64,000 nucleotides of DNA from Balanoglossus misakiensis (GCA_040954595.2 CM082584.2:3317344-3381343), one strand, 5' to 3'; counted from the stretch's first letter, positions 17,677-63,415 are shown. A program made the numbers and translations. The notes: generated by a model not told the origin, from the sequence alone.

Positions 17677-17725
17677 TTAAGGCAGACCTATGGAAAGCCA
17701 TAACTGCCTTAAGTGAACTGAACTC

Positions 17726-19190
17726 ATGTTCTCTTGTGTATTTAACATGTTGTCTTGTACATTTAATATGTTGTCTTGTGTATTTAACATGTTTTCTTGT
17801 GCATTTAACATGTTTTCTTGTGCATTTAACATGTTGTCTTGTGCATTTCATATATGGTCCTGCGCATTTAACATGTTGTCTTGTGCATTTTATATTGTCT
17901 TGTCCATTTAACATGTTGTCTTGTGCATTCATATACGCTGTCTTGTACATTTAACATGTTGTCCTGTGCATTTCTATATGTTGTCTTGTCCATTCATATA
18001 CGTTGTCTTGTGCATTTCTATATGTTGTCTTGTGTATTTCTATATGTTGTCGTGTGACTTTATTATGTTGTCCTGTTCATTTTTATATGTTGTCTTGTCC
18101 ATTTATATACGTTGTCTTGTGTATTTCTATATGTTGTCTTGTGCATTTCTATATGTTGTCGTGTGACTTTATTATGTTGTCCTGTTCATTTCTATATGTT
18201 GTCTTGTCCATTTATATACGTTGTCTTGTGCATTTCTATATGTTGTCTTGTGCATTTCTATATGTTGTCGTGTGACTTTAATATGTTGTCCTGTTCATTT
18301 CTATATGTTGTCTTGTCCATTCATATATGTTGTGGTGTGACTTTAACATGTTTTCCTGTGCATTTCTATATGTTGTCTTGTTTATTTATATACGTTGTCT
18401 TGTGCATTTCTATATGTTGTCTTGTCCATTCATATATGTTGTGGTGTGCCTTTAATATGTTGTCCTGTTCATTTCTATATGTTGTCTTGTTTATTTATAT
18501 ACGTTGTCTTGTGCATTTCTATATGTTGTCTTGTCCATTCATATATGTTGTGGTGTGACTTTAACATGTTGTCCTGTTCATTTCTATATGTTGTCTTGTC
18601 CATTTATATACGTTGTCTTGTGCATTTCTATATGTTGTCTTGTCCATTTCTATATGTTGTCTTGTGCATTTCTATATGTTGTCGTGTGACTTTAATATGT
18701 TGTCCTGTTCATTTCTATATGTTGTCTTGTTTATTTATATACGTTGTCTTGTGCATTTCTATATGTTGTCTTGTCCATTCATATATGTTGTGGTGTGCCT
18801 TTAACATGTTGTCCTGTTCATTTCTATATGTTGTCTTGTCCATTCATATACGTTGTCTTGTCCATTCATATACATTGTCTTGTACATTTCTATATGTTGT
18901 GGTGTGCCTTTAACATGTTGTCTTGTTCATTTCTATATGTTGTCTTGTCCATTCATATATGTTGTGGTGTGCCTTTAACATGTTGTCCTGTTCATTTCTA
19001 TATGTTGTCTTGTCCATTCATATACGTTGTCTTGTCCATTCATATACATTGTCTTGTACATTTCTATATGTTTTTGTGTGCCTTTAACATGTTTTCCTGT
19101 GCATTTCTATATGTTGTCTTGTCCATTTATATACGTTGTCTTGTGCATTTCTATATGTTGTCTTGTCCATTCATATACGTTGTCTTGTGC
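17726..19190. repeat. Subterminal minisatellite of copy A, ~21-22-bp unit (catttctatatgttgtcttgtg), ~109-bp higher-order period
   Basis: Directly visible; repeat-derived ORFs recur at 109-bp spacing (18003/18112; 18395/18504/18613). Confidence 0.95.
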
Positions 19191-19303
19191 TTGTGGTGTT
19201 TTATAATGATTATCAAAGTATATACCATAATGCAACAGTATGAGCATGCTCAGTAGATTTTTTACATAATAACACGCAAGAAAGATAGCGTTGAAGAGGT
19301 ATC

Positions 19304-20662
19304 ATGGCATCTATGAGAGACATTCTAGAAAGTCTACAAATGGGGAATCTCAGTGACAACTTTGAGAGTGAAAAGGTAACACCAGAATTAGTGTGTAAAC
19401 TTTCTGTGCCAGAACTGGAGGAGCTTGGTCTTCAAAACAGGGCAGACATGATGGCATTACGTATTGCGTGCACCACAAGTGGAGGGGAAACTCCAACAAA
19501 AGCCCATGGATTATATGGTGGTGCTCCAGAATTTGTCATTCCCAAATGCATCTTAGAACATTTTTTTGATGAAGGATTCACAGTTACTGAAGTGGCATCT
19601 ATGGTATCTGTTTCGGAGCGTACTATTTACCGCAGAATGATGCATTATGGGCTGAGTAAGATGAATTTCTCTGATATCTCTGATGGTGACCTGGATGATA
19701 ATGTACAGCAACTGACAGTGGAATTCCCTTATTGTGGTGAAAATATGATCAAGTATATGTTGCAAGAAAAGGGAATTAAAGTCCAACGGATGAGGCTCCG
19801 TGATAGTATCCACAGGGTAGATGCTGAGGGTGTTAATTCCAGAAGAAAAGGTCGTTTACAAAGACGTGTCTACAATGTGAAGGGACCAAATCACTTATGG
19901 CATATTGATACCAACCATAAGTTAATTAGATGGCATTTTGTGATATTTGGGGGCATTGATGGCTTCAGTAGACTACCTGTCATCCTATCCTGCAGCAACA
20001 ACAATAAGGCACCCACATTGCTGGAATACTTCAAGTCCAGTGTTGAGAATTTTGGTCTTCCCAGTCGTGTAAGGTCTGACATGGGTCGTGAAAATATACT
20101 GATAGCTGAGTATATGATTGAGAGACGGGGACCCAACAGGGGAAGCATGATTACAGGCAAAAGTGTGCATAATCAGAGGATTGAGCGATTATGGAAAGAT
20201 GTGTATGAAGGTGTTCTGAGCCTTTACTACCAACTATTTTACTTCATGGAAGAAAGAGGTGTACTTGACCCACTGAATGTACTGCACATTGCAGCTCTTC
20301 ACTATGTGTTCATGCCTAAAATAAATGAAAAGTTAGAAATCTGGAGGAAAGCTTGGGCTCGACATCGTATGCGTACAACAAAGACATCACCTCTGCGTTT
20401 GTGGATATCTGGACAGATGAATGATCCAGTTGGTATTGATGACTCTGACATTGGTTTGTATGGAGTAGAGGGTGTCATCAATGATGATTCAGAGGAGACA
20501 GACTCGCGACCAATCATCGAGCCACCATCATTTCAAATGGGTCAACAGTGTATGGATGCACTATCTCAGCACATATTACCAAACTGGACATCAGACAACT
20601 ATGGCATTGACATTAATAATATAGCAGTTCAAATCATACAGGACAATGCTGATCAAAATTAG
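19304..20662 (+). CDS. DDE transposase (IS3/IS481-like integrase core) with N-terminal SAM-like domain and HTH, 452 aa
   Basis: Intact [26 protein letters not shown] and HNQRIERLW give a D..D34E triad. [25 protein letters not shown] pattern [37 protein letters not shown]. Confidence 0.93.
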
Positions 20663-21777: not shown

Positions 21778-22074
21778 ATAAAAAAATGGTGTCAAGGACA
21801 CTGTGGTCCCATTTGAGGATTACGCAGAAATAGGTAAGTATACACCAGATGATCAAAAGGTGTAACCTCACACATGGTAAAATTTGAGACACTATTTGTG
21901 AACACAGGGTAAAATTTGCCTATGGTAAACAGAGAACATAAATCCTTACAGTTTCCTTGTGTCCACACAAGCAAAGTTTATGTATAGGCGCTGAGCCTCG
22001 GGGGCCCCATAGACAATGGGTTGAGGAGAGGTGTTAATCCTTACACTGGCTCAGGTCTGAGAAATGAGTGCATA

Positions 22075-25000
22075 TCAAACATTACCAAAAAACCTATTGG
22101 AAAAAGCTAAATCATACAATGCAAACAATTGTGCTGCCGATGGTACTGGATGTGCAGCTGTTGGTCTCGGCAATGATAATAAATTTATACATGTGTTTGC
22201 AGTCGGCAAAAACGACTGCTGCACGGGAACAAATGTTATTGCCGGACTTATGCAGAAACCGAGCACTGGCTCTTCTTCAGCCCCTGTCACAAACTGGAGG
22301 ATATCAGTAAGAGTGACAGATCCTCTTCTCCCACCTGAAACAGATTAAAGACAAGAGTAAAAAAACTCACCAAAATAAATAATCGGTCTCTACCATTTAT
22401 TCATTTTGGGCAAATTTTTACTCTCATATCATACAAGCGGAATGGAAGGTGTGGTTAAGGTTGAACGTTGATTCACTATATATCCACATGTACATTAACA
22501 TAAACGGTATCTTGTATCAAACATAATAAATAGGAAAAGGACCGGGAGAGAGACTATTGTCCCTTTAATGATTATGATTGGGGATAGGATACATATGATA
22601 CACAGCTAAAGATTGACAGACCTGCACCAGGTTTGTCACATGCATACATCATACCTGACAGGACAGGTCTGCTGCAGGTCTGAGAGGACATACATGGTGC
22701 AGGTCTAACAGGTCTGACCCGCACCAGGTCTGATCCAGCAGACTGCTGCAGGTTTGCGTCCATATCGCTGCACATGACCTGTTGGTCAGACATGCACCAG
22801 ACCTGGTAAAATTTAGTTGTGTTGTACCCATGGAATGTTAATTTTCAAAAGCAGTTTCTGTATACATATAATTCAAACTGTCACTAAAGTGCAAAAGACA
22901 GGTGGCAATGAATTGATTAGGGTGCAGTACAAGTAATTGAGATATCTGGCTCAAATTTGTCACAATGCAAGCTGTCGTATTGCTCTTTTAAATTAAGTGT
23001 GTCTCTGAATTTCTTGGAAGATTTTGTCATAAAAATAATTTTAGAAGGTTTAAATATCCAAGACAACCTTTGGAAAATCATGAGTAAAGCTTGTACTCAC
23101 ACAAATTTGTGGCATTGCAACACAACATAGGCAAAAACTTACTTTTGAAGCATTATGCAAATTACCTTTCATGTGATAGTCATGTAAACAATGGTGACAG
23201 TCTGGTAACCACAATTTCTTAGCAAATATATAATTTATGGGGGTTCTGAGCTCATTAACCATTAAGGAATTGTTAGATTAAAAATGTCAATACATGTACT
23301 TGAGTTTTGAGATTCTCGCAAGACATACGAAAACGAGTCTGAGGGTGAGCATGTACTGTGCACACAGACCGAGATTACACGTTCGGTGACTGATAAGTTT
23401 ATTAATATCCATACACTTTCTCGTTCCATGACGCCCGTGGTCGAATTAGCTGCTTTCACTATCACTCTGACAGCGAACAACCCGCCATGTGTTGTTGACC
23501 CTCAGCCTTGTTTTGAACTATTCTCACGCCTTGTTCGAGAATCTCGTTCCGGATCTCAAGAACAGAGTATTCCTTGTACTGCACCCAATCCTAACGATGC
23601 CAAGTCAGTTGAAAGGGGTTTGATTTCCAGTGTGCGTAGAATTCTGGCACCCAGGCCTGTTAGGCTGCCAAATTTGCAAAATTTAATCTTGGATATGCAG
23701 GAAACACAACACAACACATCCATATACAATCAAAATGTTCAACTTACTTGCGACTTCACGTAGGTATTTGATAAATACTGCATACACTTCACCCTCAAAG
23801 CGTCTGTTATTAGAACCTGCATCTGCGAACTCCGGTACCAGTAGGGATTTGATTTTATTCATCGTCAATGTACTGGCTGTATTTTGTTGGAATAGGTATT
23901 GAAACACAGGTAGGTCCAAACATAACTGGTAATGCAAAGAAAACCAATGATGACATAGTCCTTGCTGCTTCAATGTTGTTAAAATCTTTGGTACTCCATT
24001 ATTATTATTATTGAAAAATAATGATGACTTTGTACATAACAATTGTACACAGATCATCACAGATCGAATGCCATTAACAAATAATTTCATACCAAGTTTA
24101 GATGACAATAATCTAAGAATTGGCATTGCAGTACAACTGAATTGTGACACATTTAGTCATTTGTTTTCTGAAGTAACATTTGGAAATATTGCAATGTGCA
24201 TCAGAGCAAATTACTAGGGTATTACTGATAGATATGGCAGAGGAAATCTTCCTGTTTCAGTGGACCTACCTGATATATCCCTAAAGTGCTCAATCCATCC
24301 TTCAGCTTCATGATACATAATGGTATCTCTTCACCTTCAGAACCTTTAAACAACCATCGTAGTACATCTTCACTCAAAAACTGAGCTAGCTTTCCGTTCT
24401 GTATCATACTTAGAGCTGTAAGAAAAACTTATTATCATTACTCGTTTTATCTTTAAAGAAAGAATTACAGGAGTTTTACCATACCATCCACTTGTCAGCA
24501 TAATTCTAATCTGCTCCTTGCAGTCATATATTTCTGTGAATATGGAAAGGCTTTTATTTTTAGACTTGAGGTGTTCGGCACCCCGAAATCGCTGACTTCT
24601 GAACATTTAATCTTGGGAATAAAAATTGGAGGTCAACCTGCTAGATTTTTGGAAAAAGCACCCTCTATCTAGCACCTCTTTAAAGGGACAAAGTCTCTCT
24701 CTCGCTGCCCTTTTTCCATTACCTTTAAGTTTTTGCTAGTCTTTGTAGATCTTTGTGAAACGGCTTCACAAAGAAGTTTTTTTGGAAGGTCATCATATTT
24801 TTTACCATTATAGAATCTAATCTAAATGAATGTTTTATTTTTAGTAATTTTGAGATTTCATCTTGTTCAGTATGATAATCACATATCAATACAACTACGG
24901 TATTAAATTAAACACAGATTTGCCTAAAAATCTACTTTTATGTAATTTTTTACCATTTCTAGATAAACTTTTTTAAACCTGGTAGATCCTTGTTTGAAAT

Positions 25001-28000
25001 ATATCAAATCAATTTAAGGGGGGAAAATGGTGGGTCACCGCGCAAATTGTTGAGACACAGGAAGTACGTTAAACATGGCTTTCGGGCTGTAATCTGATTG
25101 TCCTGACCACAACATGAGGTTCAACGGGGAGCTTCTATGGGAGTTGGTCAGATGTAGTGTGAGGCAACAGCATAAGAATACTGTACTGCAAAGCAAAAGA
25201 TGTTGCCTTACCCTACATCTGATTTGAATCAGATTGGGTGATCACATGACCGAGGTAACAAGGTCATGTGCCAAATCAATCCCCATATTCGGTCTATATC
25301 TTTATTACATGCCTTCCCGACAATATATATTCATGATAACTTGTATTTACAAGTAAAAAAATAAATTATAAATGTCATTTTCGTGATATCAAGAGGGAAA
25401 ACAACAATTTTATCAAAACACTAAGCTTTAAAGTGTATGAATTATTATTTAATTGAAAGTGAAGTGGATCCCTGGGTGTTTCAGTTTCTGTACCGATCAA
25501 CCATCATACATGAATAATCTGGTGCAGTTTTTGGAAAATATTGCTATTTCATCATTTGCAACGTACGATGTTGTATGGATTGAATTTTAATGTGTTCAGA
25601 AATAAATTATTGTAAAAGCAAAAGTGAATCACTTTTTTCGTTTGGTTTCATATCGATAACAGTTCCAGGTCATCTTGTCGGCCAGTGGTGATTTTGCAGC
25701 CCGCTACGTCATGAAACGTTTGATATACGAGGCATTGTAATAAAGTTAGCATTTGACATGTACTTGTCAGGAACTGATTCTCTACCATTGAAAACACACT
25801 TGGCCATGATGAGGCTATAAAATCTTACCTATAATTATTCCTACTGTGGTGTAGTCCTCATGAAGGTGCTCTTTTAAGGTGTCGAAATATTTTTCTTTCA
25901 TTTCTCTCATAATCAATGCGAAGAATTCTTTTCTTGGTCCTCCATAATCCTTTGCTTGCTAATGAACACAGAGAAAAATAGTGTGAAATTGTTATATAAA
26001 GACATGAAGCATATGCTCAAAACATGACAAAGTTACTCATCCTGTGACCAGTTTGAGTTTTCTGCAAATAAAGAGATAGTTTGGAGCACTGCACATGCAC
26101 CATCCAAGCGAACGGGAAGTAGCATTTTTCTCAGGTTACACATCCAATATAGGGTATTTTCAGCTCTCGTACATGGCTAAATAGAGTGTCATTTTTGGTC
26201 AAGTTCATAACCAAATGCAGCCAAGATGTTCAGTCAATGTCATGGCTGCCGGCGAGCATGAAAAGTTCAGAATCCCCGAAAATTTGGGCCTAACCATTCT
26301 GCAGTCATCTCTGGTTTCTGCAATGTTACTCCAGAATATTTATGATTTCAGTTGGCTGTATTCAAATCTATTGTACAGTGTCTTTTAGAGGATCCATTTT
26401 TCCTTCATATAAATATTAAATATTCTCATTGAACAATTAGTTGACAAAATGCCAGCATTGTATATAATTGCACAATGGGGGACAATGTGGACGCTCGTTC
26501 TATGCATCACACATGGTGCTAGTAGGTGGGTAGCAGGTAGGAGGAAGTTTCGTTAGAAGAGATTAATCACATCACTTCTGGGGTCAATTTAAAATAGGTA
26601 AAAGAGTTAAGGTTCAAAGACAAGTAATTGATCCTCTTAATCTAAAAATTTTGTTGCTTAATAAGCTCAGAAGTCAGAACCTCATCAAAAGCCTACCACG
26701 GACATGCAATTTGCATAACCTTTAATAAATCAATTTGCCCAATGGTTTGTTTTAATGCTTTGAGGTATCACGCTCAAATTTGCGAGAAAGCAAGCTGTCA
26801 CAATGCTTTTTCCAAAGTGTGTCTCATATTTTTTATATCTTGGTTATTTTAGTGTTAAATGATCTTAAAGTTTGTTAATCATAACATTTGTTTTAGAAGA
26901 TTAAAAAAAATCTGAGACACACTTCAGTCAAGCATTATGACAACTTGTAACCACAACAATTTCAGGCACATTTAGTTGTTGTTGCAATAATATGCAAATT
27001 ACTTGTCATGTGACAGCTATGTAAACAATGGTGATTCAGTGGAATCAAAGATAAGCCCAAAGCTAGTTTTCTCCACTTCTATCCCTGATAAATTGATACA
27101 TATATGTTGCTAAATTTCATAAATACAAGAAATCCTACATTGTACTTTCATTGAACACATCACTCTGAAATATCCAACAAAGTCAGACTTACCTCTCCAT
27201 AAAAATCAACTTCCAAAGTTGTACACAGCTCCTTCACAGATAATGTTGTTATCTCATCAAATCCAGTTTGGAGAACTGACAACCTGTCAACAGTTATGGA
27301 AGTGGTTCTACCCTCAACATGCTGACTTGTGGACTTCAACTCTAATGGTCTGCCTGTCATTACTACTGACTGGTAAAATCGCAGAATTTCAACTGGATTT
27401 GTGACTGCATTCTCCTTGCAATATTTCACGGTTCTCTGTACAGCATTATTTACCCATAACATGCCATCTTCAATCTCTGGTTCACTATCAATACCATCTC
27501 CAATTCCAAATATACTGCCTGAATTATCTTCATTATTCCTGGTCTGAAAGTAAACAAATCATTGTAATGAGTTTAATGACACATGACAAATATAAAGTAT
27601 TTAAACGTTCCCCTTTTCAGGTAGGCCTAAATCCTGTCATGTTCTGATTACAGGACGTATCATAGGTGTTAAAGCAAATACTAGTACATGAATAAATTAT
27701 CCAAATATAAGGTTCAACCATATACAAGTTCTCTTGTTGGTGGGACCATAGCAGACTTATGTCACAATTACGAACACAATTGAGCATATTAATTTAAATA
27801 ATAACACATGTTATAATATACACCATGCTAATACTGTGTCGTGATTTGCCAGAATCCGTCACGTGATAGGAAAAGAGTATCAACTATGAATCCCTAGGTA
27901 AATAGCAGAAAAAATATAAACCGGTCACGTGACCAACGTGAGTGAGGTTTATTATAAAACACCTATGGCCTGACGTCCGTGAAGTTGGCCTCATCCTCAG

Positions 28001-30140
28001 CTTGAAAAGTCACGCGAATATGAGGATGAGGATGAGGCCAACTTCACGAATGCTGGGCCTGGGCTATATTCGGGCCATTGCAGCCGTTTTTACCCCCTAG
28101 TGACTGTGAGTTACCATTTTTTTAAATTATTATTATTATCATTATTTAAACGGTGTTTTCTCCAGGATGTTGAGAGAAGGGGGGAATGTCCCCTCTTAGT
28201 CCAAAATTATTGGGGGATTTGGTCAAAGTAGGGGGGAATCATGATTTGCATAATTTATGTTAATTAGGTAAATTTCAAGGAATAACAATTTTGAACGTTA
28301 TCTTACTAACTGCCTTCATTCCAGCAACTTATGAAGTGCTGGGCTTGCCAGCGTAGGTAGTAGGTACTGTGCAATCTTGTGTGACCTGAGCTACGTAGTG
28401 ATAGCGAGACAGAATTACAACATTTTACATGTTAACATGTGACATCTAAACAGTTACAGATTTTTACTACTTTAAATTTGTAGATTTTGCAGAGGAAGAC
28501 ACCAGCTTGCATAACTTTCAGGGCATGTAATTTTAAAAAGGCCGGAGAGCTGAAAATAACCCCTGAAATTATTTACACAAGTGGTAGGAGAGTGACTAAC
28601 TGCTCCCCTGGCAAGGAGAGTGAAATGAATAAAATAAATGCAACTGGAAAAACAAGTGTCTTTCTTTAAAACTATACCTGGGAAAAAATTTCTTGTTTGA
28701 TTTTAAAAGTTTCAGTTTTTTTAGCTGTCAAAATATTATATTGTGAAACTATTAATAGTGAAATAAATTGAAGTGGTATATTCCTTCAGATTTCTGCCTA
28801 CACTTCCCCATCTGTGGCTAGGCACACTACTCAAATAAATAGTCACTGTACATATTGAATGACTTTCCTTCCAAAGTAAGAAAACAGGTCTTGGAAAACT
28901 GATACATTCTTGATAATCGCCATGGCATGAATGCAGTTCTTTTAATTTGCATAAAATTGTTACATTCTGCCAACCCAATTTCAAATGTCTCCATAACAAC
29001 AAGATCACTTGAGTGTGTGCTCTAAACTTAGACAGTGTCCAGACAGAGCTCTTTGGCTGTTCCAACAATTGCACACTATAGCCCTTGGAGCTAAATTACA
29101 CGTAATTGAATGTGAAAGTCATTTACAACATAGTATTTGGGGGTGGGAAGTTAAAATGTATAGGCCAGCACGCAGTAATATCGGCCGTTTTCCCAGTGTT
29201 TTGACTGACAGTGCATGCTACGAGGCTTGGACGCGCATGTACTGGCCGGGTGGGCTGCTCAAGAAGGGGCGATTGTCGCCCCCTGAACTTGTTACAAGGG
29301 GCGCTTCAAGTGGGGGGAATCGCGCAATCGCGCGTCCCGGAGAAAACACCAGAATCATACCCCTCAGCAATTTCGATCCCCGTTAGAAACAGAACAAGAT
29401 GATTAAAACTTACATGATCCTGTTCAGCATTTTCAGTCAGATCAACAACCATATTGTTCGGAATTTCTTGCGGTGTATCTCGATGTTCAATAGGTCCGAG
29501 AGGAAGCTCTGGGTCTTCATCCGACTCCGATTGAAGAACTGGCAAACACCAGTCGATATGACTGCGTAATTTGTCAATCGTGAACTCTGTGTTGCAACCT
29601 CGGCACTTTTCTTTCAGACTCGTCCCATGGCTGGTTTGTTCTGTTTCTGTGACGTTCAGATTTTTTTGAATAGGGCGCAAGTATAATTTGGCTTGAGAGC
29701 CGACATGGCGCTTTAGCTCCTCGACGCTCCAAGAACATGTTATCGTTTGCAAATTTCGGCAGTTGCCAGTGCAATGCATGATTTCGAAACCTCCGCATTC
29801 ACTTAATTGTGGATATTCCGCCTTGATTTTGTTGGCAACATCTTCCTCATCATCGTGGCAGAAAAAAATCATCTTACGTTCCCCAAGTCCCGCCTTGTTA
29901 AGAACTAGCTTTTCAGCAACTGTTGGAATTCTCTGTTGAAGGCGATCAGCCACACACAAGACACGGACTGTCCATGTCCGGGCCTTTTTGGCGGTTTTCT
30001 TATCTCGACCGACAGTACCAGACGGGGCACCAGCCCGCCCACGCCCACCATTGCCTCTGGCGGGGATAAATAACATGTCTCTTTCAGAGCGTACGGTCTC
30101 AGAGAGTCTTCCATAGTTGCTAGAAGATGCAGATGCTATA
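22075..30140 (-). CDS. Transposon-borne HECT E3-ligase-like gene (G2E3-like), copy A; 5' end (SAM domain) deleted
   Basis: Exons ~30140-29414, 27543-27193, 25958-25829, 24415-24270, 23925-23748 and 22334-22075. Motifs LEVDFYGE-QAKDYGGPRKEFF, ILQFVTGAEE, FLPTANTCINLLSLP (catalytic Cys), C-terminal FFGNV*. UBZ-like CRGC-x11-HIDWC. Confidence 0.85.
22601..22821. mobile_element. Small CACTA/EnSpm-like MITE
   Basis: CACAGCTAAA...TTTAGTTGTG ends with many internal CAGACCTG/CAGGTCTG motifs in both orientations. Confidence 0.55.
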
Positions 30141-30240
30141 TGGGCTAAGAGGGCATACTGATATTGTCCATATAGAAAGTGGATATAAATACTGTATTGT
30201 GTTTTCATTCTCTAACGCATAAACCACTGATTTTTGCCAG

Positions 30241-38650: not shown

Positions 38651-38701
38651 TACTGAAGCGAAAATCAAAAATCAAAAACGACAAAGAAAAAAGAGAAGCT
38701 A

Positions 38702-39690
38702 ATTAAAGCTGCAAGCAGCATTGGAGGGGCCCAAGCATAGAGTTAATAACCATTAGACTCCATTCAGGGTTGTACCATTCAAATGCGTAGGCTGTATTTG
38801 CTCTGGATGTGGAGATATGGGGAAGTAGGCAACCACCCGAAATGGGTGTCTAACAAGTACAAACACAACAACCAAAGGTGAACTTCTACGTTGTAAGTAC
38901 TTCAGTAAGTATACTTCAAAGGTCAGCTGAGGGTACCCAAAAATTGGGCCAAAAATTAGGATTCTTATTTGGTTCATATTCAAGACAACGGAAAATCCTC
39001 GCTGTTTGGGTTTGTCAAATTAGATATGGCCATAATAATGAGTTACACAAGTAAGTTAATACAGGTGGCCCCAGGAATTTAGCATTTCATGACGCAGAGG
39101 GTCCTACCCTACCCCTCCAAACACCTGACAAAAAATTTTCATTCCTGTTTATGTCATGTGCAACAAATCCTACATTTGCAGCCCTTTCACTTTGCCTACC
39201 ATTAGGTATGCACGTAATACATGAATCGTGATTTTCCAAGGACTACTGCAACCCGCCAGAAGTGAGTAGCCTGCTAATGAGATCTCCACAACATTACGTA
39301 ATGATGGTCAAAGTCCGATGCCCCAGTGTCCGTCCTCAGCCCACCAAAAAATGCGAAAAAATATTACAAAAATCTTCTTCTCAAAATCGACGTGGCCTAG
39401 GACCTTGAAATTTGGCACAGGGGATTTTGGCCACATGGTCTACAAAAATCGCGAAAAGAATGTACATGCCCCCATTAACGTGCAAATTAGGTCAATTTGA
39501 AAATTTCGCTCGATTATAGCCACAAAGTCACGTGACTATTTACAAATTCAAAGGGCAGGTGCACCAGTACTCATGGGCCCCAACCACCGTGCCAAATTTG
39601 GTAGGCGCAGCTGCCGGAATTTCAGAGAAAAACGGGCGCAAAAAAACGACTCAAGAAGATGGAAGAAAAACTGCAGCAATAACTAAAAAA
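38702..39690 (+). mobile_element. Third Helentron-type (HINE-like) copy lacking its 3' hairpin; end approximate
   Basis: Head attaaagctgcaagcagcattggaggggcccaagc shared with 13224 and 14439; shared gtcacgtgacta and ccaaatttg motifs. Confidence 0.55.
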
Positions 39691-43371: not shown

Positions 43372-44027
43372 TTAGTTGTTTATCATTGTATCCTCGATCC
43401 AGGTGATCACATTTGGCACGTATCCGTACAGACCCGGTTTGTTGGGCACGGCGCAACCGTGGGTGACACGGTCTCCAATGACACCGACCAGGTAATATCT
43501 GTCTTCAGATGCCATGTAGTACATCATGGGGCCACCATCGTCTCCCTGGATTAAGAGAGATTAATTTTTCTGTTACAAACTTTCAGAATGGGGGGCGACG
43601 CAGTATCTCTGTATCTCGCGAACTTCCATTTCATAAGCATGGCAAAAATCGGCCATCTTGAAATTGTGTCCACCATACGAGATTTTAATGACTCACCTAG
43701 GTACTAAACCCTATTTAATATAGGTAGTGCCTAGATAGTTTATTTCATCAGGCTAGGGGATCAAATTACAACAATGTTTTGAGCGTGGCGTGGACACGAG
43801 CAATGTGAGCTTTCAAATGCGGGGGTCACGATTTACTTACATTGCAGACATCTTCCCCTCCGGTGCCTTCGCCACAAATCAAGCTGGGAGTCACATCACC
43901 ATTCCAACGCGATGGGTCGTTGCAGTAATCTCTGTCGTAGATGACAATGCTTTGTTGCAGAAGAACTGGACTACCTGTATCCAAAGAGAATTGATTACCC
44001 ATTGAGAAAAAAAATTACTGAAACTTG

Positions 44028-44065
<38 letters not shown>

Positions 44066-47000
44066 CCCGCCACTCAGTGTTGTGTCTTCTATTGGTTTGA
44101 AATTCAAACAAAACCTCTCCTTGCCCTTTCCAAACATCAAGCTGACTCAAGCTAATGATAAGCCTCCCCAGTATACAGGCTGAATTTAACCGTTTCTGTA
44201 TAAATAGAAAAAAAAGAGAAAGACAAAAATAGAAAAAAAAGAGAAAGACAAAAATTACATATACAGATGTATATACCTGAGATGCTATCGCCGAATCCAG
44301 TGATGTACGTGGCGGTACCATTGGAGTAGTTGTCATCTTGGTCTGGCAGACAGATGTCCAAGTGCCAATCATTTATAAACGCAATGGCGCCCCTGATTTT
44401 GAGCAGAGCAAAGTTGTAATCGTCCTTGAATGGCGCGTACGAGGGATGGATGTGGATGCTTTCGACGTCGTGAATTGTCTCATATGGGTCAGGCTGGGTG
44501 TACGCATGGTTACCGGAAACGACGTCGTACACCTGAGGGTTGTTCCTGAACCTGTACGATGCGAAGTAAAATGCTTGCATTAAAAACAGATGAAACAGAT
44601 TGTTTTTCAGAGCACTTAGCCAATTTCTCATCGAAAAATAGATGTACTTGGACATCTACATGTAGGGTATACAATTGATACACAAAATTCAATTTCAGTA
44701 AAGTCCTGCCCCACACCAACGAAATCTACTTGGTAACATAAATGTTGACATTATAGTCGTAAAGCCTTGAGAATGACTTGACTTAATGACTTCCATCTGA
44801 TCACACACAGAGCATAGTCTCAAAGTTTGACAGAGTTTTATGAGTGACCAAAACAAACTTGCTCCATTGGGAAACACTGGAATTTGGGCAAGTCTGGAAT
44901 TTTGCAGGGTTTAAGGAAATGTCCATCATTGACTATCTGTTTGATCTTAAGCTAAATTAATTGATTTGTAATGAGCAAGAATCCTTATATGTAGTTAGAG
45001 GAGGTATACCACTATCTGTATTTGGCAAAGAGGTGGCGACAATTATTATAATTGTAGCATGCCGGGTAGTTTGAGAAGCACATGGAAAACTTGAGTGCAG
45101 TGTACGGCTTGGCTAATGTCAGATGTGTGGTCTAGTGCCTCTGTGTGCATGAACTGACAGTAAACTTGTTGTGTTAGAGTCTTATACTCCTTGGAAGTTA
45201 GAGTACTTCAATAAACCAAAGGAACCATATATATATATAACTACGCTCGTCTGGATTGTCTATTGAAGAGTGTAACATACACAAGCCGTGTATTTTCATT
45301 AAGCTGGTTAAATCGGAAATTGGATAAGTTTAAAAGCAGAAATATAGTAGTGTATCGTTCAAAAATAATTTGACTTCAAGAGTGCACGTCGCTATAGTTA
45401 CAGGCAAAAATGTAGTGATCTCTGAGTGAGCGGGAAATTGCCTATTGGCCAAAGTCTCTGGATAATTCCGGAATTTGTGACGTCCTTTCCTGTAACGGAA
45501 TACTCACAGGTATATGCAGGTGGCGGCCGTAAGCACCCAGCGGTTGTCCACGATCGTGGCTCCACATTTGTGCTTGAAGGATTCTTGGATGGAAGCCTGC
45601 AGGAGTAAACCGTTTTTTTTTTGTAAAGCAAACCGTGTTTACCCTCGCGTGACGTGCACAAGGCGAAACTATGGGATATAACACCGTGGTGTAATAGTAG
45701 TACATGTAAATAAGTCTTTTCACACTATGTAATACAACGAAGGGCTCTGCTAGTGAAGCCGAACTAGACGAGCGGTAAGCTATTTTTTGTGGACTCCAAA
45801 GTTGCCAGCATCATTTTTTGGTCAACTGTAAAACCATGTGTATCTCTTTTTACGTGATTGGCAATACATGATTGATTGATTAAATTGGTTCATTCTGAGT
45901 CAGTTGTTCGCGCTGCCGCAATGGAAATGTTCATAAAGGTGTTTACCATCCAAGGCCAGCTGCCGGGAACTGCTTCGTATCCACCCACGGAGCCGTTAGG
46001 AGGAGCAAGAATTGGGTCGATGACTTGTTGGCCGCATCTTGGAGAGTTACCTGTCAAAGGAAGCCATGGCATCAATCTCTGGCATGGGGTTTCAAAGCAA
46101 TGATGACAACAGAAAAAATTGCGTCAGGGACACGGTGGTCCCATTGAGGGATTACACAAGAAAAAGTCTACACCGGAGTACATGGCCATATACATACATA
46201 CATACAGACAGACAGACTCACACACACACACATAGAGAGAGATCAATGGGCAAACACTGACTGACCCATATAAGCTGCCAATGGCATAGGTACTGTACAT
46301 ACCGGTACACTAAATAGAACAACTGGTCTCTTAAAAGTTATGTAATCATGCAGGAATTTGCTGTGTATATATACATCACAGGACGGGGTTCCTTGACCTA
46401 ATTATAAAGAACTCAATAAAGTAAATACACACCACTTTGCAAAGCAATCTGACCAGTAGTTCTTGGGTTACCGAGTTTTGATCAAATTCACATTTTTCCA
46501 GATAATTTGCATATTTTTGGCAATGGCAACTTCATTTGAACAAACTCCCATCTACAGCCCAACCTGCATCTGCATACCAAATTTCAAGGTGATACACGCA
46601 GCGGTTTTCAAGTTTTTTATGTGGACAGACATACAGACATCCATCCATCCATCCATACATACATACATCCATACATACAGACGCAACTGATCCCATAAGG
46701 TCCCATGGTACATACCAATGGGACCCAAAATTTCTTGCCACCTTTAATAAATGTATTTTTCACGTTGCGCTAGGGAGTCAAAACACATTGTAATGATCAC
46801 ATTGTGGGCAAAAAGTGAGACAATTCACTGTAATAAGAATCAATTATGATGATAACCTGTATTTCATGGATACACTCTGCTTGGAGAAGTAGACTTTCAA
46901 CAAGAAACCCACCTTTTGCCCCATGCAAAAGTTGCCAAAAACGTGAATACGTTTCAGCCACACTACTATTACATTTGAACACGTGATATTGAAACTCTTT

Positions 47001-53462: not shown

Positions 53463-53649
53463 GGTCCTCCTTCAAGAAACTCGCTTCACAGAATACAGGG
53501 TGCGGTGGAACGAGTTCCGTATTCTACACCCAGGTTAGTCAACAAAGTCTGTGAACATTCAGAAATACCGTCACCTGTGGCCGTCGGTGATGTATTGTAT
53601 AGCGTTGATCGCTATGGAAAGCCACAGCTGTCTTAAGTCCATTGTTACC

Positions 53650-54480
53650 ATTATACGACGCTCATACATCTTTATACAATGTGCATTCATCATTATACGA
53701 TGCTCATACATCATTATACGCTGTTCGTACATCATTATACGACACTCGTACATCATTATACAATGTGCATATATCATTATACGATGGGCATACAACATTA
53801 TATGCTGGTCGTACATCTTTATACAACGCTCATACATGATTATACGCTGCTTGTACATCATTATACGACACTCGTACATCATTATACAATGTGCATATAT
53901 CATTATATGCTGGTCGTACATCATTATACGACGCTCATACATCATTATACGCTGCTCGTACATCATTATACAACACTCGTACATCATTATACAACGCTCG
54001 TACATCATTATACAATGTGCATATATCATTATACGATGTGCATACAACATTATATGCTGGTCGTACATCTTTATACAATGTGCATACAACATTATACGCT
54101 GGTCGTACTTCATTATACAATGCTCATACATCACTATACAATGTGCGATCAGTATACGCTGTGCATACATCATAAAATGACGCTCATACATCATTATACA
54201 ATGTACATACATCATTATACACTGCCCATACATCATTATACGCTGTGCATACAACATTATACGCTGGTCGTACATCATTATACGACGCTCATACATCATT
54301 ATACAATGTGCATACGCCATCATACGCTGTGCATACATCATTATACGTCGCTTATTCACCATGATACTATGTGCATACATCATTATGCGCTGTGCATACA
54401 TTTTTATACGACGCTCATACATCATTATACAATGTTCATACAACATTATATGCTGGTCGTACATCATTATATGCTGATCA
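53650..54480. repeat. Left subterminal 21-bp minisatellite of copy B (catacatcattatacgacgct-like)
   Basis: Directly visible; contiguous with the TIR. Confidence 0.95.
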
Positions 54481-54659
54481 TGCACCATGATATGATGCTT
54501 GTTCATTACATTACAGCAGAGACACCTTTATTGCAGGCTGTTTGTTAACTGGTTCCTAACAGTGTATTTACGATAGAGGGCATGTACTCTGATCAGCTGT
54601 TTCTATCGGCCATTTTGGATGTCAAGTATTTGATTTGTAAGTCTTCACAATTTGGCAAA

Positions 54660-56024
54660 ATGGCATTGTCTCCTATGTCCACCATACTGCAGCGACTGAA
54701 TTTGAGCAACCTTACTGGAGTGTTTGAAAGGGAGAGGATCACTCCAGATATTGTTGGTAAGCTATCCAGCTGGGAAATGGAGTCCCTTGGAGTGGTTAAT
54801 CCTGGAGACAGAATGGCTTTGAGCGTGACTTGTACCACCTATGGGATGCAAGTTCCACCTAAGGTTTGGGAAAGTGGGGGTGCACCACAGTTCATCATTC
54901 CAAAAGATATCCTGGAGAACCATTTAGATGAGGATTTTAGCATCTCTGAAATAGCATCAATGATAGGAGTTTCAGAAAGTACCATTTACAGAAGAATGCG
55001 ACAATATGGTCTTAGCAAGATGGACTTCACAGATATATCTGAAAGTAATCTAGATTCATATGTCATTGAATTGGCACGAGAGTTCCCATACTGTGGAGAG
55101 AGAATGCTAACTCACATTTTGAAGAATAGAGCAGGCATTAAAGTCCAGCGGATGCGCCTCCGTGACAGTCTTCACAGAATTGACTCAGATGGTGTAGATG
55201 CAAGACGAAGGGGTCGTTTACATCGCAGAATATACAATGTTAAAGGACCAAATCACTTGTGGCACATTGACACAAACCACAAGTTGATTAGGTGGCATTT
55301 TGTGGTAATTGGCGGTATTGATGGTTTTAGCCGTCTGCCAGTCATGCTTCAATGTCGGGACAACAACAAGTCAGCTACTCTGTTACAGTGTTTCAAAAGT
55401 GCTGTAGGCGAATATGGCGTTCCAAGTAGGGTGCGCTCCGATCAGGGCATGGAGAATGTTGGCATAGCGGACTACATGATATTAAGCCGTGGGCCTAATA
55501 GGGGAAGCATGATCACAGGGAAAAGCGTACACAATCAAAGAATTGAGAGGCTGTGGAAAGATGTTTTTGAAGGTGTTCTTGCGTTATATTACCAGTTATT
55601 TTATTTTATGGAGGAGAAGGGTATTTTAGATATACTGAAGCCAAGCCATATAGCTGCACTTCACCATGTGTATTTATCTAGAATAAATCATAAATTAGAA
55701 ATATGGAATAACGCATGGGCCAATCACAGAATGAGGACGACAAGAACATCACCTCTGCGCTTATGGGTTTCCGGTCAGTTGCAGAACCCAGTTGGGATTG
55801 AGTTAGCTGCTGATGAAGTCACAGAATATGGCGTTACTGGCGTGATTCGTGAGGATGCTGATGAAGCAGATTCGAGACCTGTGATCGATGCACCATCATT
55901 TGAGTTAAATGAAGCCTGTACGGAAGAACTATATCGCACCATTCCACAAACATGGACATCCAATAACTATGGTATTGAGAGGTACCTAGATGCACTATCC
56001 ATAATTAATCATCACCATGATTAA
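54660..56024 (+). CDS. DDE transposase with N-terminal SAM-like domain and HTH, copy B
   Basis: Intact ORF (open from 54582; ATG 54660 aligns with the copy A start). [28 protein letters not shown] pattern [46 protein letters not shown]. Confidence 0.93.
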
Positions 56025-56569
56025 TTCTGTTCGTTCTAGACTTAGAGCGGCAATAGCTGTGATTTTGAACATTTTTTGGCACTAATAACACAGGAAATGT
56101 TTTATTAAAAATAAAAATCAGAGAAAACAGATCGATAGTTCAGTACAATTATTGCTGCTTTAACATATGGAGCACTTAGAAAACAAACAGATACAATGTA
56201 TCATTTGACAATGCATGTTTATTCAAAGAAAACATACACAACTTCTCGACAACAATGAGTTTTACTAGCCAAATCCTCAAGGTCAAAACGAAATGACAAC
56301 AACACCGGCGCCGCCGATAACACCAAGTCACATGAATGAAAAAAACAGCTGATCACTGGAAAGCAGGTCACTGCAGCGCAGATGCTCTATGGACTGCAAT
56401 ATTACTCTGAAGGGCCATCCATGAAACAGTAATTGTTAACGTTTGTCAGTTGGAACTTGTAACTTATACATGTAGTATAAAGCAACTAAACATATACCCC
56501 CAGTACTCAAATGGTTGCCATATTATGTATCCAATGCATAGAAGGAAATCAAACCATACAGGCACCATG

Positions 56570-59500
56570 TCATACTCTACCAAAATGTCTAGTGGTAAAT
56601 GCATAATCATACATCTCATGCATCCTATCTACTGACAATAGGTCATGCTCAAGAGTGGGTCTCGGTAGCTTCAATAAATTGATGCAAGTATCTGACGTTG
56701 GAATAAAAGATATTTCATATGGAATAAATTCAATACTTGGTGCAGTTCCAAACCCTAACACTGGTTCTTGCTCTAAACCATGAAAGTTATATTTTAACCC
56801 ATTGATATAGCCAAGACATTACTTACTTGCAACTTCACGAAGATATTTGTTGAATACTGCATATACTTGGCCTTCATATCTTCTATCATTAGAACCATTC
56901 TCACTGAACGATGGTGTTAGCATTGCCTTTAGCCTTGGCAAAGTGAGTTTTGAGGATGTATTTTCACGCAGAAGATGCTGGAATGTAGGCAGCTCTATAC
57001 ACATCTGTATTAAGTAATATATAGTGTGTAATATATGTGTATTAATACACTTCTCTTTTAGACACACAAAAAACATGACAATGGAAGCAAACCATATACA
57101 ATGTAATAAAGTTCATGTTTATGTTCTCAGTCTGACAATAATATAGAGAGACTTCAATATGAACACTGATTACAATCACCCCACAAAAGCACTAGAGATT
57201 GTATTTAGTACTCCCATTGTGATATACATGTATTGTGACAGTATACTACTACCGGTAGTAGTGTTGTTTAAAATTCCAGTACTATAATGTTTTTTTAATG
57301 AATTCTGACCAAGACATGAATGGAAAAGTTGGCTAAGTAATATCAGATACATGTAGATAAGGTATGCAATACCTCAGTTTGTAGTTTCAACACTTTGTTA
57401 AAAGGTGATTTTTGACCGTGTATGAAGTGAGTTATTTACATCTGTCCTATATCTTATATGGACCAAACCAAAATTTTACCAAAATACAAGAAATTATGGT
57501 GGAAATCAGTTTATGAATAAGCCAATTACTACCAGTTAAAATGCATGGACTGATGCTAAAAAGTGATTGTTCTATACATTACATATGTTAACAGTGTACA
57601 TGTTCATAGAATCCTACCCTATATTTATTAAACTATGAAACTATTCAATTCTATTTAATATCCAAATTACCCTAATTAAAATAAACCAATGTGCATAAAA
57701 AATAATCAAATCTTGTATTTGTTGCATTTGTCTTTTTTTATATTCTAAGCAAGATTTTCGTACTGACAGACATCCATGACATAAGACATGGTGGCTATTA
57801 ACCACTAAAGCTGTTATAACTCAATAATCTATAAATAGTTGTTTAAACTCACCTTATGTATCCCTAATTTGTTTAGGCCTTCCTTTAATTTCTCCAGACA
57901 TGGATTTAATGACACTAAGCCTGTAGAGAACAGCTCTGATAAGACATCGGCACCTAGGAATTGAGGCAATACTCCATTCTGCAATATGCTCACAGCTATA
58001 AGAATCAATAATTTAAGTTACATTTTGAAGAGCTCCTGTGTGAGTTGCGAGAAGTTCTGTCTAACGAGTCATATAACATGAACCCATGTGTATGTCTTGA
58101 TTGCCATTCGTGAACTAATTTAACATGCAATTTGTCCACACAATACTCGTAGATAAGCATTAGTCATGCATATTCCATGTTTGAATGGGTTTTGGCATTG
58201 GCATGAATCAACTTCGAACCAAAGAAAGTTTAGAAAGAACTCCCGTGTTCTGAGGGAATCGCAATAGTAAAAGCAATTTGATCCACAGTATTAAAATTTA
58301 CAATACAAACAGAAAACCCTACATAACCCCTACATGTGCATAATCCCAGAATACCAATAAGTATACCAGCTAACAGCTGAAAAATTGGCTAATTTAGGTT
58401 TGTCTTATTGAAATTTCTAGAGCTATCAGTGGAGCAGCTAATAAATTGCAATTTATTATGCAAATTAGATAATTAATATGCACTGGTGTCAACCAAAAAG
58501 TATAATCAGATCTTCGCATTTTCCAAATGCATCTGTGTATCAAGTTTCATTGGAATCTGTTGAACGGTGCATGAGATATCAATGGAACAGCTAAGAATTG
58601 GCTAAGAATGGCTGGCATGTCATAACAGCAGAAGTAAAAAAGGATGTCCATATGAACATGCCAGAACAAAAAATATCTTACCTAAGATCTGACCAACAGT
58701 CACGTAATCATCACAGAGGTGGTCTTTTAAGCCATTGTCAAAATATTTCTCTTTCAATATCCTTAACATTGAATTCAAAAATTCTTTACGTGGACCGCCA
58801 TAGTCCTTTGCTCTCTGTGTGAAATTAATAATATAAATATTGATGTTAGTATATGGTAATAGATTAATCATTTTAAGGCAATAAAAATCCATTCAAACAA
58901 ATGTTTTTCTTTATTTCAAATTACCTCTCCATAAAAGTCTACTTCAAGCGTTGTTCGTAGTTGCTGTATAGACAAGGCAGACATTTCATCAAAACCAGTT
59001 GATGAAAGGCACAGTCTGTCAACGCTAATCACAGTTGTATCGCCTTCGTCACACTGATCCATTGCTTTGATTTCCAGAGCTCTACCAATGATCATTTTAG
59101 CTTGATAGTACCGGAGAATCTCCACAGGGTTTTCTATACTATGCTCCTTACAGTAATCAACAGTTTCTATAACAATAGCTTCCACTTTCCTCTTTTCTGC
59201 ATCATCTCCCACTTCATCTTCTTCATCGACCACCTACAATGGGCAAAACAAGATTAATAATTTAACATAAGTTAGGAAATGTCTATATACCATATTTGGT
59301 CCAACAAAGATCAATAATGATATACAATCTGTCAATGTATATAAAAATGACTGCCCATATATTTTCCTTCTTTTAAACTGGACTGATTAGGGAGTTTGTG
59401 TACATTTTCTGTACCTTTTTGGCAGACATCCGTGCATATTAATTTTCACCTAAAATTGCTTTTTTGAGACCACAAAAATATGTAATATTAAATTAAAATA

Positions 59501-62434
59501 TGTAAAAAACAACATTTTCAACTTGATTTTTTTACAATTTACCAGTTAGTGGCCCAAAAAAAGGAAACTCACAGGAAAACAAATAATTAAACACTTACAA
59601 AATTGTCTCGCTCCATTTCCACATTTATATCAGAATTGGTCTGATTTTCATCAGATACAGCAGTAGCTGTAATATAATCATTCCTGAAAGAAAGAAGATG
59701 GTCCTCTTTTCAGTGTCATATTCTCTATGTTATTATTATATTATATGTAGAAACGTCCATAAGATTATATGTCACAGAAACAGACGACTAGAACTTGGGT
59801 GCTTCCATTGTGGCAAGAATTTTAAAAGAAATTCATTTGTGCCCACATATACAGATCTGATGGTTTATATGTTAAAAGTTAAAACGGTGTAATCTAATAT
59901 TGGATGAATATCCTGACTGTACATAGCGTATTTACCCTATTAGTAACGCATGCTCTTTCGAAATGGCAGAGGTTTGTTTATGGTCAAAACAAGTCTTGTT
60001 TTAATAAGTCAGTATACAATAAATGCCACTGTTGGCTTACATGTACTTGGATTTTAGATGCGCTTCTAACGGAGCAAATACGGCATACTTAAAGGGAGTA
60101 GATCGTCACATACGCATGGATTCACTGTAGCCTCTGGTTACGGCAGGTAAACATTCAATCCCATAATTCCGTACGAATATCAAACTCTATAAAATGGCCA
60201 CCAAACTACTCGCTAAAACTAGTAAAAGCCTTACTTGGGTATTCTTACACTGTTTGGAATGAAAAATAACTAAATATGACCACCATTCAAATTCCGAATT
60301 TGCAGCACAAATTTCAGTGAGAGAAGCCTGTGTACCGCACGATGTATTCACACACCAATCGCCATTACCAAGCACACCTGATTCATACGGGACAACGAAG
60401 CGCCCCAAAACGCCTCACAACTTGTACAATGGCCCCTTTTTGAACTTTATGCGAGGAAGACGCAGCCATCTTGAATCTCGCTCACACACTAGCTATACAG
60501 TGCATTATGGGTAAAAATCATGTTTATCAACAAAGGATAAAAATAGGAAAATCTACCCCCCTTCAACCTATTTAATTTTACTGTACTACACACTATATTT
60601 TAGACTACACTAACAAATGAGTATAATCCCAGTTATAATGCAAAAAGTTAGTTCAGTGAATTAGCATGAACTGAAATTGCTCAGGTGTTGCAATGATATT
60701 GCACCATCTGGACAATGTTGATTGTCATTATATTTACAACTGTTCTTGTATTTACATTTTCTGATGGAATAAATTTCATTCATCATATGCAAATTAAATG
60801 GCAACATAACCAAATCAAATAAGATTATGTATTTTATTATGATGCCATGGGAACATGCACAGAAAGTGAAAGGCCAGAAACTGGCTCAAGTCAGCAGGTC
60901 ACAGGAATTTGAAATTGTTGTTGTTGAAAGAAATATACAGGCCAAAACAAAATTATGCTGGAGGTTCCTGACTTCTGCCTGACTTCAGGAGCATAGCTGT
61001 ATCAATGTGCCAAATGTAATTGAAAATGGTATTAATACTTACACATGTACCGGTACATGATCAGCAACCTCACTCATAGATTCAACAGCTGCCTATAAAA
61101 TGAAATAATATTGGAAGTAAGCTACATATCATAAACTATGTATGTACAGTGTATTATCACAAGCACCAAAACTGACCAAAATGTTCACCAAAAACTAGAT
61201 GCTAGCATATACATGCATGTATCCCCCAACCCATTGCTCATTTGCATATATCAGAATATGAATCCAGAGCAGATGCTTTTGGGTAAATATTGGTAAATAC
61301 TGACTTACAAAGACAACATTAATTCTAACATGTTGGTTATGTTCATCCCTACAATACAAACATGAATGAACACAACAAAATAGTTTGAGAGAATGAGTTG
61401 TTTTCACCAAAAATACACGAGTATTCCAAATTTTCTTTTCTCATTGCTCACAGTTGCAATTTCTTTCTTGATGATAACGAGTTATCAATCGTTTTTTCAC
61501 AAAATGTTCATAGTCCCCCCCCCTCCACCCACCCAGATTTTCAAATTAGAAAAAAACATACATAAATAAATATTAAATAATTTCTAAAATACTGTTATAT
61601 GTTCACACTTACCCCTACATCTTCATCTGAATCAGATAAACATTTACATGTCCACATGTGATCACGTAATTCCCGTACATCAATAAGTTGATTGCACCCC
61701 TGGCACTTTTCTGTAACACTTGACGAAATTCCAATGGATGATATTGGCTTTGTTGACAGGTTTCGTTGTATAGGCCTCAAATAAATCTTAGACTGTGAGC
61801 CTAAATTAGCCTTCAGATCAGGTATTGACCAGTCACAGCTTATTACAGACAGATTACGTGAGTTAGGTTGACACTGCAGTAGTTCAAATCCACCGGCATC
61901 TTTCAATTGAGAATATCCAGCCATATCATTGTCATCATCTTTCGCAGATGACAAGGTATCCAAGAACTCCCCCTGAGAACACGAAGCATCAAATTTGATC
62001 TTTTTTGGCCCTAACCCAGCACGATGTAAAACTTGACGTTCGGCAGATGTTGGAACTTTAAAGGCATGCCTGTCCGACAAACAAACAAAATTTCCTGTCC
62101 ATGTACGCTTCGGTTGATTGACCGTGCCACTCCGGCGCGTGCCTGTCCTAGGTCTACATCCCCTTGGTGCCATTCTCGGGTTAAAAAGCACACTTCTTTC
62201 TTCTCGAACAGCGCTGGCCATACTGTCATTCCTGGTAGTAGACTCACCGGTTCCGATCGTACTTGTAGCCGTTTTACACAGGTCACGGATGCGAACGCGA
62301 TCCCCCAATGTTGAAACTCCCAGTCTAGTTAATTCACCATCAGTCATGGAAAGAACCGTTGAAGGATCCACTCGTTCGTCTAGGAAACGCTGTAAGAGCG
62401 CTGGAAGTTCGAGCTTAGTCAAGATACTTTCCAT
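56570..62434 (-). CDS. Transposon-borne SAM - beta-grasp-like - UBZ-like - HECT E3-ligase-like gene, copy B
   Basis: Exons 62434-61613, (possible small linker exons), 59233-58925, 58814-58682, 57995-57853, 57004-56827 and ~56773-56570. SAM: ILTKLELPALLQRFLDERVDPSTVLSMTDGELTRLGVSTLGDRVRI. Also GGFELL...IYLRPIQ, CQGC-x11-HMWTC, DYGGPRKEF and IPTSDTCINLLKLP. Confidence 0.85.
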
Positions 62435-62599
62435 TCTGACTGGGTCAAACACTCAGATCACAAACAAATATGGCGCATGTTACGTATTTAAGTATGTTGC
62501 GCCCTCTTTGACAGAATTGCGGTTAGGCATAGCATATCATAATGACATGTCCGCATAGTATAAAGCCAAACGCGCGCCGTATGTTGAACGGGCATAGTA

Positions 62600-63192
62600 T
62601 CATGGTGAATGAGCGACGTATAATGATGTATGCACAGCGTATAATGATGTATGCACACTGTATAAAGATGTATGAGCGTCGTATAATGATGTATGGGCAA
62701 TGTATAATGACGTATTCACAGCGTATAATGATGTATGCACATTGTATAAAGGTGTATGAGCGTCGTATAATGATGTATGGGCAATGTATAATGATGTATG
62801 CACAGCGTATAATGATGTATGCACATTGTATAAAGGTGTATGAGCGTCGTATAATGATGTATGGGCAATGTATAATGATGTATTCACAGCGTATAATGAT
62901 GTATGCACATTGTATAAAGGTGTATGAGCGTCGTATAATGATGTATGGGCAATGTATAATGATGTATTCACAGCGTATAATGATGTATGCACATTGTATA
63001 AAGGTGTATGAGCGTCGTATAATGATGTATGGGCAATGTATAATGATGTATTCACAGCGTATAATGATGTATGCACATTGTATAAAGGTGTATGAGCGTC
63101 GTATAATGATGTATGGGCAATGTATAATGATGTATGCACATTGTATAAATATGTATGAGCTTCGTATAATGATGTATAAGCGTCGTATAATG
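62600..63192. repeat. Right subterminal 21-bp minisatellite of copy B with 84-bp (4x21) higher-order repeat, inverted relative to the left array
   Basis: Unit starts at 62761, 62845 and 62929 are 84 bp apart. Confidence 0.95.
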
Positions 63193-63415
63193 GTAACAAT
63201 GGACTTAAGACAGCCGTGGCTTTCCATAGATCGCGATTACTTGTTTGTTACTATATTTAGAAATCCCTAGTGCGCATGTCTGGCGCCATCTTGAAATTCG
63301 GAGAAACAAATCGGACAGCCATTGACACCGCGCAGTGTACCGTGTACCGTCGCCCCGGCTGGGTAAAATCTACCGTCGTTTTTTGCCCCTAAATTGCTTG
63401 TTTTTTTTAGTTACA

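Follow-up and report, generated by a model that had tools for sequence, protein, structure and literature searches.

An IS3EU/GingerRoot transposon of Balanoglossus misakiensis with a convergent gene for a minimal HECT-family protein

A 9.6-kb transposon at 53613-63228 of the window (the whole 64-kb stretch of Balanoglossus misakiensis DNA that was analysed) bears a ligase-type gene opposite its transposase, and it is very probable that this unit, here copy 1, is an IS3EU/GingerRoot cut-and-paste element in which the HECT-family gene is a stable accessory. What is new here is the accessory protein: judged from alignments and a predicted structure, the HECT of this sub-lineage is minimal, being without the stretch for the E2-binding small subdomain but keeping the catalytic cysteine. 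The account as a whole, i.e. an IS3EU element with a long-standing SAM/beta-grasp/finger/minimal-HECT accessory that is directed at the transposase and probably disabled in the window copy, has in our judgement an even chance of being right. The structure and function of IS3EU elements have been called largely unexplored (PMC11934779), and a dedicated ubiquitin enzyme would offer a direct, testable approach to the control or protection of a transposase by its own eukaryotic transposon.

Both ends of the element read TATGGAAAGCCA, at 53613 (+) and 63228 (-), and the left end is identical to the reverse complement of the right at 49 of 50 and 55 of 57 positions. Termini of the form TATGG..CCATA with inverted repeats, flanked on either side by the 6-bp duplication GATCGC, are as expected for IS3EU, a group whose defining features are TA..TA ends and, in most cases, 6-bp target-site duplications (TSDs; PMC10045372, available part), with TAYGG..CCRTA ends in the fungal families (PMC12730594, available part). 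The open transposase frame 54657-56024 matches PF24764 (E 4e-77, Pfam profile search), with weak Pfam matches to SAM and HTH ahead of the integrase-type core, and its triad is D205, D262 and E297 (counted from 54657), both aspartates being invariant in 95 aligned transposase rows. Ahead of the core lie SAM and HTH regions with no HHCC zinc motif, in agreement with IS3EU, and the first Asp, some 200 residues from the start as in other IS3EU/GingerRoot transposases, falls within the 100-300 residues typical of the group. Among the first 12 IS3EU entries of Data S3 in PMC10045372 the nearest family is Repbase IS3EU-1_SK, whose core is identical at ~78 of 107 residues (~73%, counted by eye). The terminal repeats, the GATCGC duplication, the intact transposase and the IS3EU assignment of the preliminary description are thus all upheld. 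The near-identical ends together with the open frame suggest that the insertion is young.

Table 1. Positions of element features in the window
Feature	Position	Strand	Comment
Left target-site duplication GATCGC	53607..53612	.	
Left terminal inverted repeat, TATGG start	53613..53669	+	55/57 identical to right end
Left subterminal array, 21-bp unit, 40.7 copies	53649..54499	+	75-80% complementary to right array
Intronless transposase: SAM, two HTH-like regions, DD34E integrase core	54660..56024	+	Open frame 54657-56024
Last HECT exon, remnant	56570..56774	-	Catalytic Cys codon 56686-56684; stop 56572-56570
Deletion junction	56774..56775	-	Loses the 3' part of the intron plus the 19 opening codons of the last exon; 2-nt microhomology; cryptic in-frame acceptor remains
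HECT exon: end of N-lobe, hinge	56827..57004	-	
HECT exon spanning site of absent small subdomain	57853..57995	-	
HECT exon with DYGGPRKEF	58682..58814	-	
Exon: helical extension and HECT start	58925..59233	-	Ends FYGE
Probable small acidic-linker exon, 85 nt	59599..59683	-	Putative; in frame only together with 61092-61043
Probable small linker exon, 50 nt	61043..61092	-	Putative; sole candidate of the needed phase
First exon: SAM (1-58), beta-grasp (~110-225), C2HC finger (~240-265)	61613..62434	-	
Right subterminal array, 21/84-bp unit	62597..63192	-	75-80% complementary to left array
Right terminal inverted repeat	63172..63228	-	55/57 identical to left end
Right target-site duplication GATCGC	63229..63234	.	
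Copy 2 left end and 22-bp array	17689..19190	+	First 12 nt identical to copy 1
Copy 2 open transposase	19304..20662	+	62% identical to copy 1
Copy 2 HECT gene, six exons	22075..30208	-	HECT part whole, SAM part missing; right TIR not found

The second gene of copy 1 runs on the minus strand, convergent to the transposase. Modelled splicing of six exons, all bordered by GT-AG, yields an uninterrupted reading frame, and the two further small exons of Table 1 would fill the acidic linker. The HECT hallmarks noted in the preliminary description are present (FYGE..DYGGPRKEF, PTSDTC.N and a Phe at -4), and the last exon matches PF00632 in copy 1 (E 0.005, Pfam) and in copy 2 (E 1.5e-8), the N-lobe exons giving no Pfam match when searched singly. 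That this arrangement is no product of modelled splicing is shown by a homologue of 664 aa, P0007, in which one frame holds both the N-terminal part and a HECT; of eight homologous proteins examined, seven break off just past FYxE, at the site of an intron in both window copies. The beta-grasp part is a predicted fold (pLDDT 86) whose best fold match, the ubiquitin-like domain of TBK1 (Z 7.9, rmsd 2.4, 79 aligned), is middling and names no function; Foldseek with this model returned no match under E 0.001, and in the ESM Atlas the part falls in unnamed clusters alone (0.88-0.90), the C-terminal part falling in HECT clusters. The C2HC finger matches PF18574 at sub-threshold scores (at best 23.9 bits, E 3.7e-5, the Pfam cut-off being 25). 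Fingers of this type contribute to E2 binding in RNF125 or, as UBZ fingers, recognise ubiquitin itself.

Structural comparisons were made with a model of P0007 (mean pLDDT 82.5) and not of the window copy's own protein. P0007 matches PF00632 (E 2.8e-10, Pfam), its model matches HECTs by Foldseek (E 2e-11), and residues 360-664 align with HUWE1 3991-4373 (Z 20.9, rmsd 3.5, 269 aligned), revealing a bilobal HECT fold. With the HECT E3s E6AP, HUWE1, UBR5 and AREL1 the sub-lineage shares this fold and its N-terminal helical extension, as well as the GGP motif, the PTxxTC cysteine and the C-terminal aromatic residue; it differs from them in its SAM/beta-grasp/finger N terminus, in being ~85-95 residues shorter from the GGP motif to the Cys and in being ~70 residues shorter in the N-lobe at the small subdomain. 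The family profile aligns to the E6AP chain at 12-110 and 288-342, and the median spacing between these anchors is 111 residues in the family vs 180 in E6AP. The spacing was taken from the 118 proteins that span both anchors, among 257 collected by likeness to P0007, so that the count describes this sub-lineage only; it is 100-119 in 109 of them, shorter in seven, in the 130s in one and 322 in one. Between residues 426 and 548 the P0007 model has no strand of at least three residues, i.e. no sheet where the E2-binding small subdomain would lie. In E6AP this subdomain comprises residues 622-692, and on these boundaries and the model the ~70 missing N-lobe residues likely correspond to it.

The N-lobe is the E2-binding lobe of HECTs (PMC13018541, available part) and, with the stretch for its E2-binding subdomain missing, transfer from E2 to E3 in the usual manner is not to be taken for granted; a HECT that has lost this docking site may be no ligase. 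The catalytic Cys is nevertheless kept in 93/94 family proteins and a Phe or Tyr at -4 in 89/95, and both residues are present in the two window copies. Our literature search found no report of a HECT lacking the E2-binding subdomain; one that is under selection without the textbook E2-docking part, yet with its Cys, amounts to a natural experiment on what a HECT needs. A distant IS3EU locus (L021) carries at 1177-2349 (-) an intronless, full-length HECT convergent to its transposase, an example of the unreduced state. Since a full-length HECT stands at the same place there, the N-lobe loss is specific to the sub-lineage.

A minimal HECT of this kind might act unconventionally: as a decoy or relay for ubiquitin, or as a hydrolase, it would protect the transposase against ubiquitylation by the host, its Cys taking up or releasing ubiquitin. 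Such a role would suit a sub-lineage-wide loss of N-lobe residues beside a retained Cys and C-terminal aromatic, and the ubiquitin-like fold and the finger could bind ubiquitin machinery. The -4 aromatic of HECTs, however, serves substrate transfer, and its retention in most family proteins argues for a transferring enzyme, as the full-length HECT of L021 argues for ligase ancestry; we consider a decoy, relay or hydrolase quite improbable.

The pairing of the two genes recurs. Among 40 related loci surveyed, 20 were informative (at least 700 bp beyond the transposase), and a convergent HECT part was found in nine of these 20, or in seven after merging the near-identical L002/L009 and L035/L036. 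In all nine the HECT part lies downstream of the transposase on the opposite strand; none of the 40 loci has a HECT upstream of the transposase or on its strand. The count includes the HECT of L033, which is below the Pfam cut-off, and that of L021 (E 0.06 with the family profile, E 3e-7 with Pfam). Inverted arrays flank both genes in L036; exact ends and a TSD were sought in L035, L036 and L008 and not found. The remaining 11 informative loci are without a HECT part, most of them being short, and L016 and L034 hold N-terminal pieces of the ligase gene alone. In L016 SAM and beta-grasp pieces (2297-2757, -) sit directly behind the transposase with the HECT part gone, as in an internal deletion derivative. 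L008 (1261-4290) and L027 (~1100-3945) are bounded by inverted repeats that begin TATGGAACGCC and TATGGAAAGCC, respectively, and contain a decayed transposase alone. The HECT gene is not, therefore, obligatory in every copy of the element.

Between copies 1 and 2 synonymous sites are saturated and the proteins are conserved, both in the HECT part (pS 0.76, pN 0.30) and in the transposase (pS 0.75, pN 0.24). This comparison, of a kind that the preliminary description had itself proposed, shows purifying selection on the HECT gene and, with the recurrence in nine loci, supports its view of a conserved component rather than chance cargo. A point against is that the distances between elements measured on the transposase and on the HECT are only loosely correlated (rho 0.3, p 0.12, nine elements, L009 and L036 being dropped as near-duplicates). 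A captured host gene without a role in transposition would be in keeping with the capture of gene fragments by GingerRoot elements (PMC6839031, available part), with the broken state of the HECT gene in both window copies and with its absence from some bounded relatives. The captured fragments are, however, partial and 79-98% like their host gene (PMC6839031, available part), whereas here protein and intron positions are conserved across saturated synonymous divergence, place and orientation are the same in every HECT-bearing locus, and the accessory has a SAM in common with the transposase, so a mere passenger is very improbable.

The SAM that opens the ligase protein (1-58) and the one with which the transposase begins are homologues (36% identity, HHalign 99.2%), the domain being present in 61/64 and 95/95 aligned rows in the ligase vs transposase comparison. 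That homologous SAMs start both proteins favours, among the roles suggested in the preliminary description, those directed at the transposase, although domain shuffling inside the element, with no contact between the proteins, could also have produced them. We propose a mechanism in which the ligase would dock on its own transposase by SAM-SAM contact, the finger and/or the beta-grasp part would capture E2~ubiquitin in place of the lost subdomain, ubiquitin would pass from the E2 so held to the minimal HECT in a non-canonical charging step, and the transposase complex or its neighbours would be ubiquitylated, leading to turnover or remodelling of the transpososome. This picture of a SAM-docked, non-canonically charged ligase acting on the transposase complex falls, to our mind, slightly short of an even chance. 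The broader proposal, that the minimal HECT of animal IS3EU elements forms a new enzyme class of the ubiquitin system, having lost the canonical E2-binding subdomain, being charged through its own finger and ubiquitin-like modules and being aimed at the transpososome by SAM-SAM contact, is more tentative, and we would sooner doubt than assert it. If true, the element would be a self-regulating two-protein transposon.

The same protein might instead counter silencing, acting as a ligase on host chromatin or on silencing factors near the element, the SAM merely tethering it. Fungal IS3EU elements carrying alpha-kinase and TET/JBP genes share with copy 1 the TAYGG..CCRTA ends, the 6-bp TSD and an accessory enzyme gene opposite the transposase, and the TET/JBP genes are of the anti-silencing kind; their accessory is a kinase or dioxygenase, and that of copy 1 a multi-domain HECT protein (PMC12730594, available part). 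A divergent HECT, G2E3, ubiquitylates H3K14 and needs its catalytic cysteine to do so (PMC12920882), and the divergent 'GL-Metazoa' (class IV) HECTs group with G2E3 and UBR5; compared by description, these and the copy 1 protein are all highly divergent animal HECTs of odd domain arrangement (PMC3673628, available part). UBR5 also supplies seven of the 12 top fold rows for the P0007 model, but UBR5 and HUWE1 rows are tied within ~1-2 Z and their ranks reflect lobe orientation rather than a tree. Unlike the copy 1 protein, G2E3 has PHD/RING fingers and a 328-residue HECT (PMC9547173, available part), and neither PHD/RING nor any other chromatin reader was found in the ligase protein with Pfam. 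On balance we rate a chromatin ligase as rather unlikely, and prefer a role directed at the transposase.

The preliminary description called the element complete, and for the HECT gene of copy 1 this is not confirmed. In copy 2 the last exon begins with 19 C-lobe codons that copy 1 is without and that are kept in 30/30 chosen aligned homologues and in 94/95 homologues that span the region; the C-lobe of copy 1 is accordingly not whole. The cryptic acceptor keeps the frame, and the predicted product, without the first C-lobe helix, is probably inactive, so that the ligase gene of this copy is probably disabled by the deletion. Contigs of two sequencing runs of one sample (X1 and X2) match the window up to 56774 and then diverge. 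One X1 contig continues with 167 other letters, so at least 167 letters are missing from copy 1; the loose end of an X2 contig reads in frame EDVLVFTTGT, the motif of the family at this place, before the window's EQEPV, so that the missing codons are still present in the contigs. The 34 letters of the window past the junction are found in the runs as well, but there a different sequence follows them.

Because contigs drop rare forms, the lesion may have arisen either as a deletion private to this copy or through misassembly. If the window were misassembled at 56774, this very insertion would be whole, and no X1 or X2 contig was found to bridge the window's junction. Rare variants do, however, get dropped from contigs, the 2-nt microhomology at the junction is of a kind often seen in repair deletions, and the window differs from the contigs at several single letters, so that the window may represent another copy or individual. 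We regard an assembly error as unlikely and a disabled copy as the better reading. Within a copy 1 intron, the segment 59860-60500 matches very many unrelated contigs, and one contig joint skips 59860-60345; this is probably a nested high-copy repeat that is absent from another form of the element.

The second copy was described as extending from 17689 to 30140 with the same layout, and in part this stands: the left end, the array, the transposase and the convergent HECT gene are there, and within the HECT part the copies agree in the position and phase of four introns, as claimed. The subterminal repeat units differ, the arrays being of 21-bp units in copy 1 and 22-bp units in copy 2. The SAM part is missing, however, and the proposed right end is rejected, 30140 falling inside copy 2's open frame with no TIR there. 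Exact matches to the 12-mer end sequence occur in the window solely at 17689, 53613 and 63228; with two mismatches allowed there are seven, at chance level (6.9 expected), so exact matches alone were counted. No inverted array or right TIR for copy 2 was found across the 64-kb window. The six letters that flank its left end, CAGACC, are met again after a CCGTA at 43428 (window 43424-43434; ~0.01 expected), with no further TIR likeness or array there; one possibility is a 25.7-kb element whose far right end lies near 43428, in which case the kinase gene between would be cargo.

This multi-exon protein kinase gene (30223-34100, +; Pkinase E 2e-16; HIPK/DYRK-like by eye) starts right behind the truncated HECT gene of copy 2, and its glycine-loop exon was not found in the window. 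Both genes lack their 5' ends from ~30.2 kb, which a single deletion could account for. Small inverted repeats of one family, ~200 bp long, occur at 21440-22550 and 24680 (3' region and introns of copy 2), at 42400-42610 and elsewhere.

The pairing of a HECT with an IS3EU transposon was found in no publication, the search covering literature other than the Repbase annotation and a 2019 review by Kojima, either of which may name HECT; Repbase lists second proteins, with names ending in _2p, for some IS3EU families. HECT is unmentioned in the IS3EU/GingerRoot literature consulted (PMC10045372, PMC12730594 and its supplement, PMC6839031, bioRxiv 2021.09.26.461848, PMC11934779 and PMC4455052), as are transposons in the available parts of the HECT surveys PMC3673628 and PMC2837046. 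Named relatives of the transposase and of the ligase protein come from molluscs, cnidarians and hemichordates. If the broader proposal above is true, many multi-copy 'uncharacterized HECT' genes of these animals would be explained as genes of transposons. For annotation, divergent clusters in the hundreds (519 at E 1e-30) that are at present labelled as ligases of the host may likewise belong to transposons.

Elsewhere in the window, frames at 37949-38702 (-) resemble by eye a LINE endonuclease/reverse-transcriptase remnant, the one frame tested having no Pfam match, and fragments of an LTR-type integrase region lie at 3558-5376 (+; Integrase_H2C2, E 6.5e-4). Host gene exons are present at 8594-9295 (-), for an FAD-dependent oxidoreductase (E 8e-11), and at 44152-44655 (-), for a trypsin-like protease (E 2e-7).
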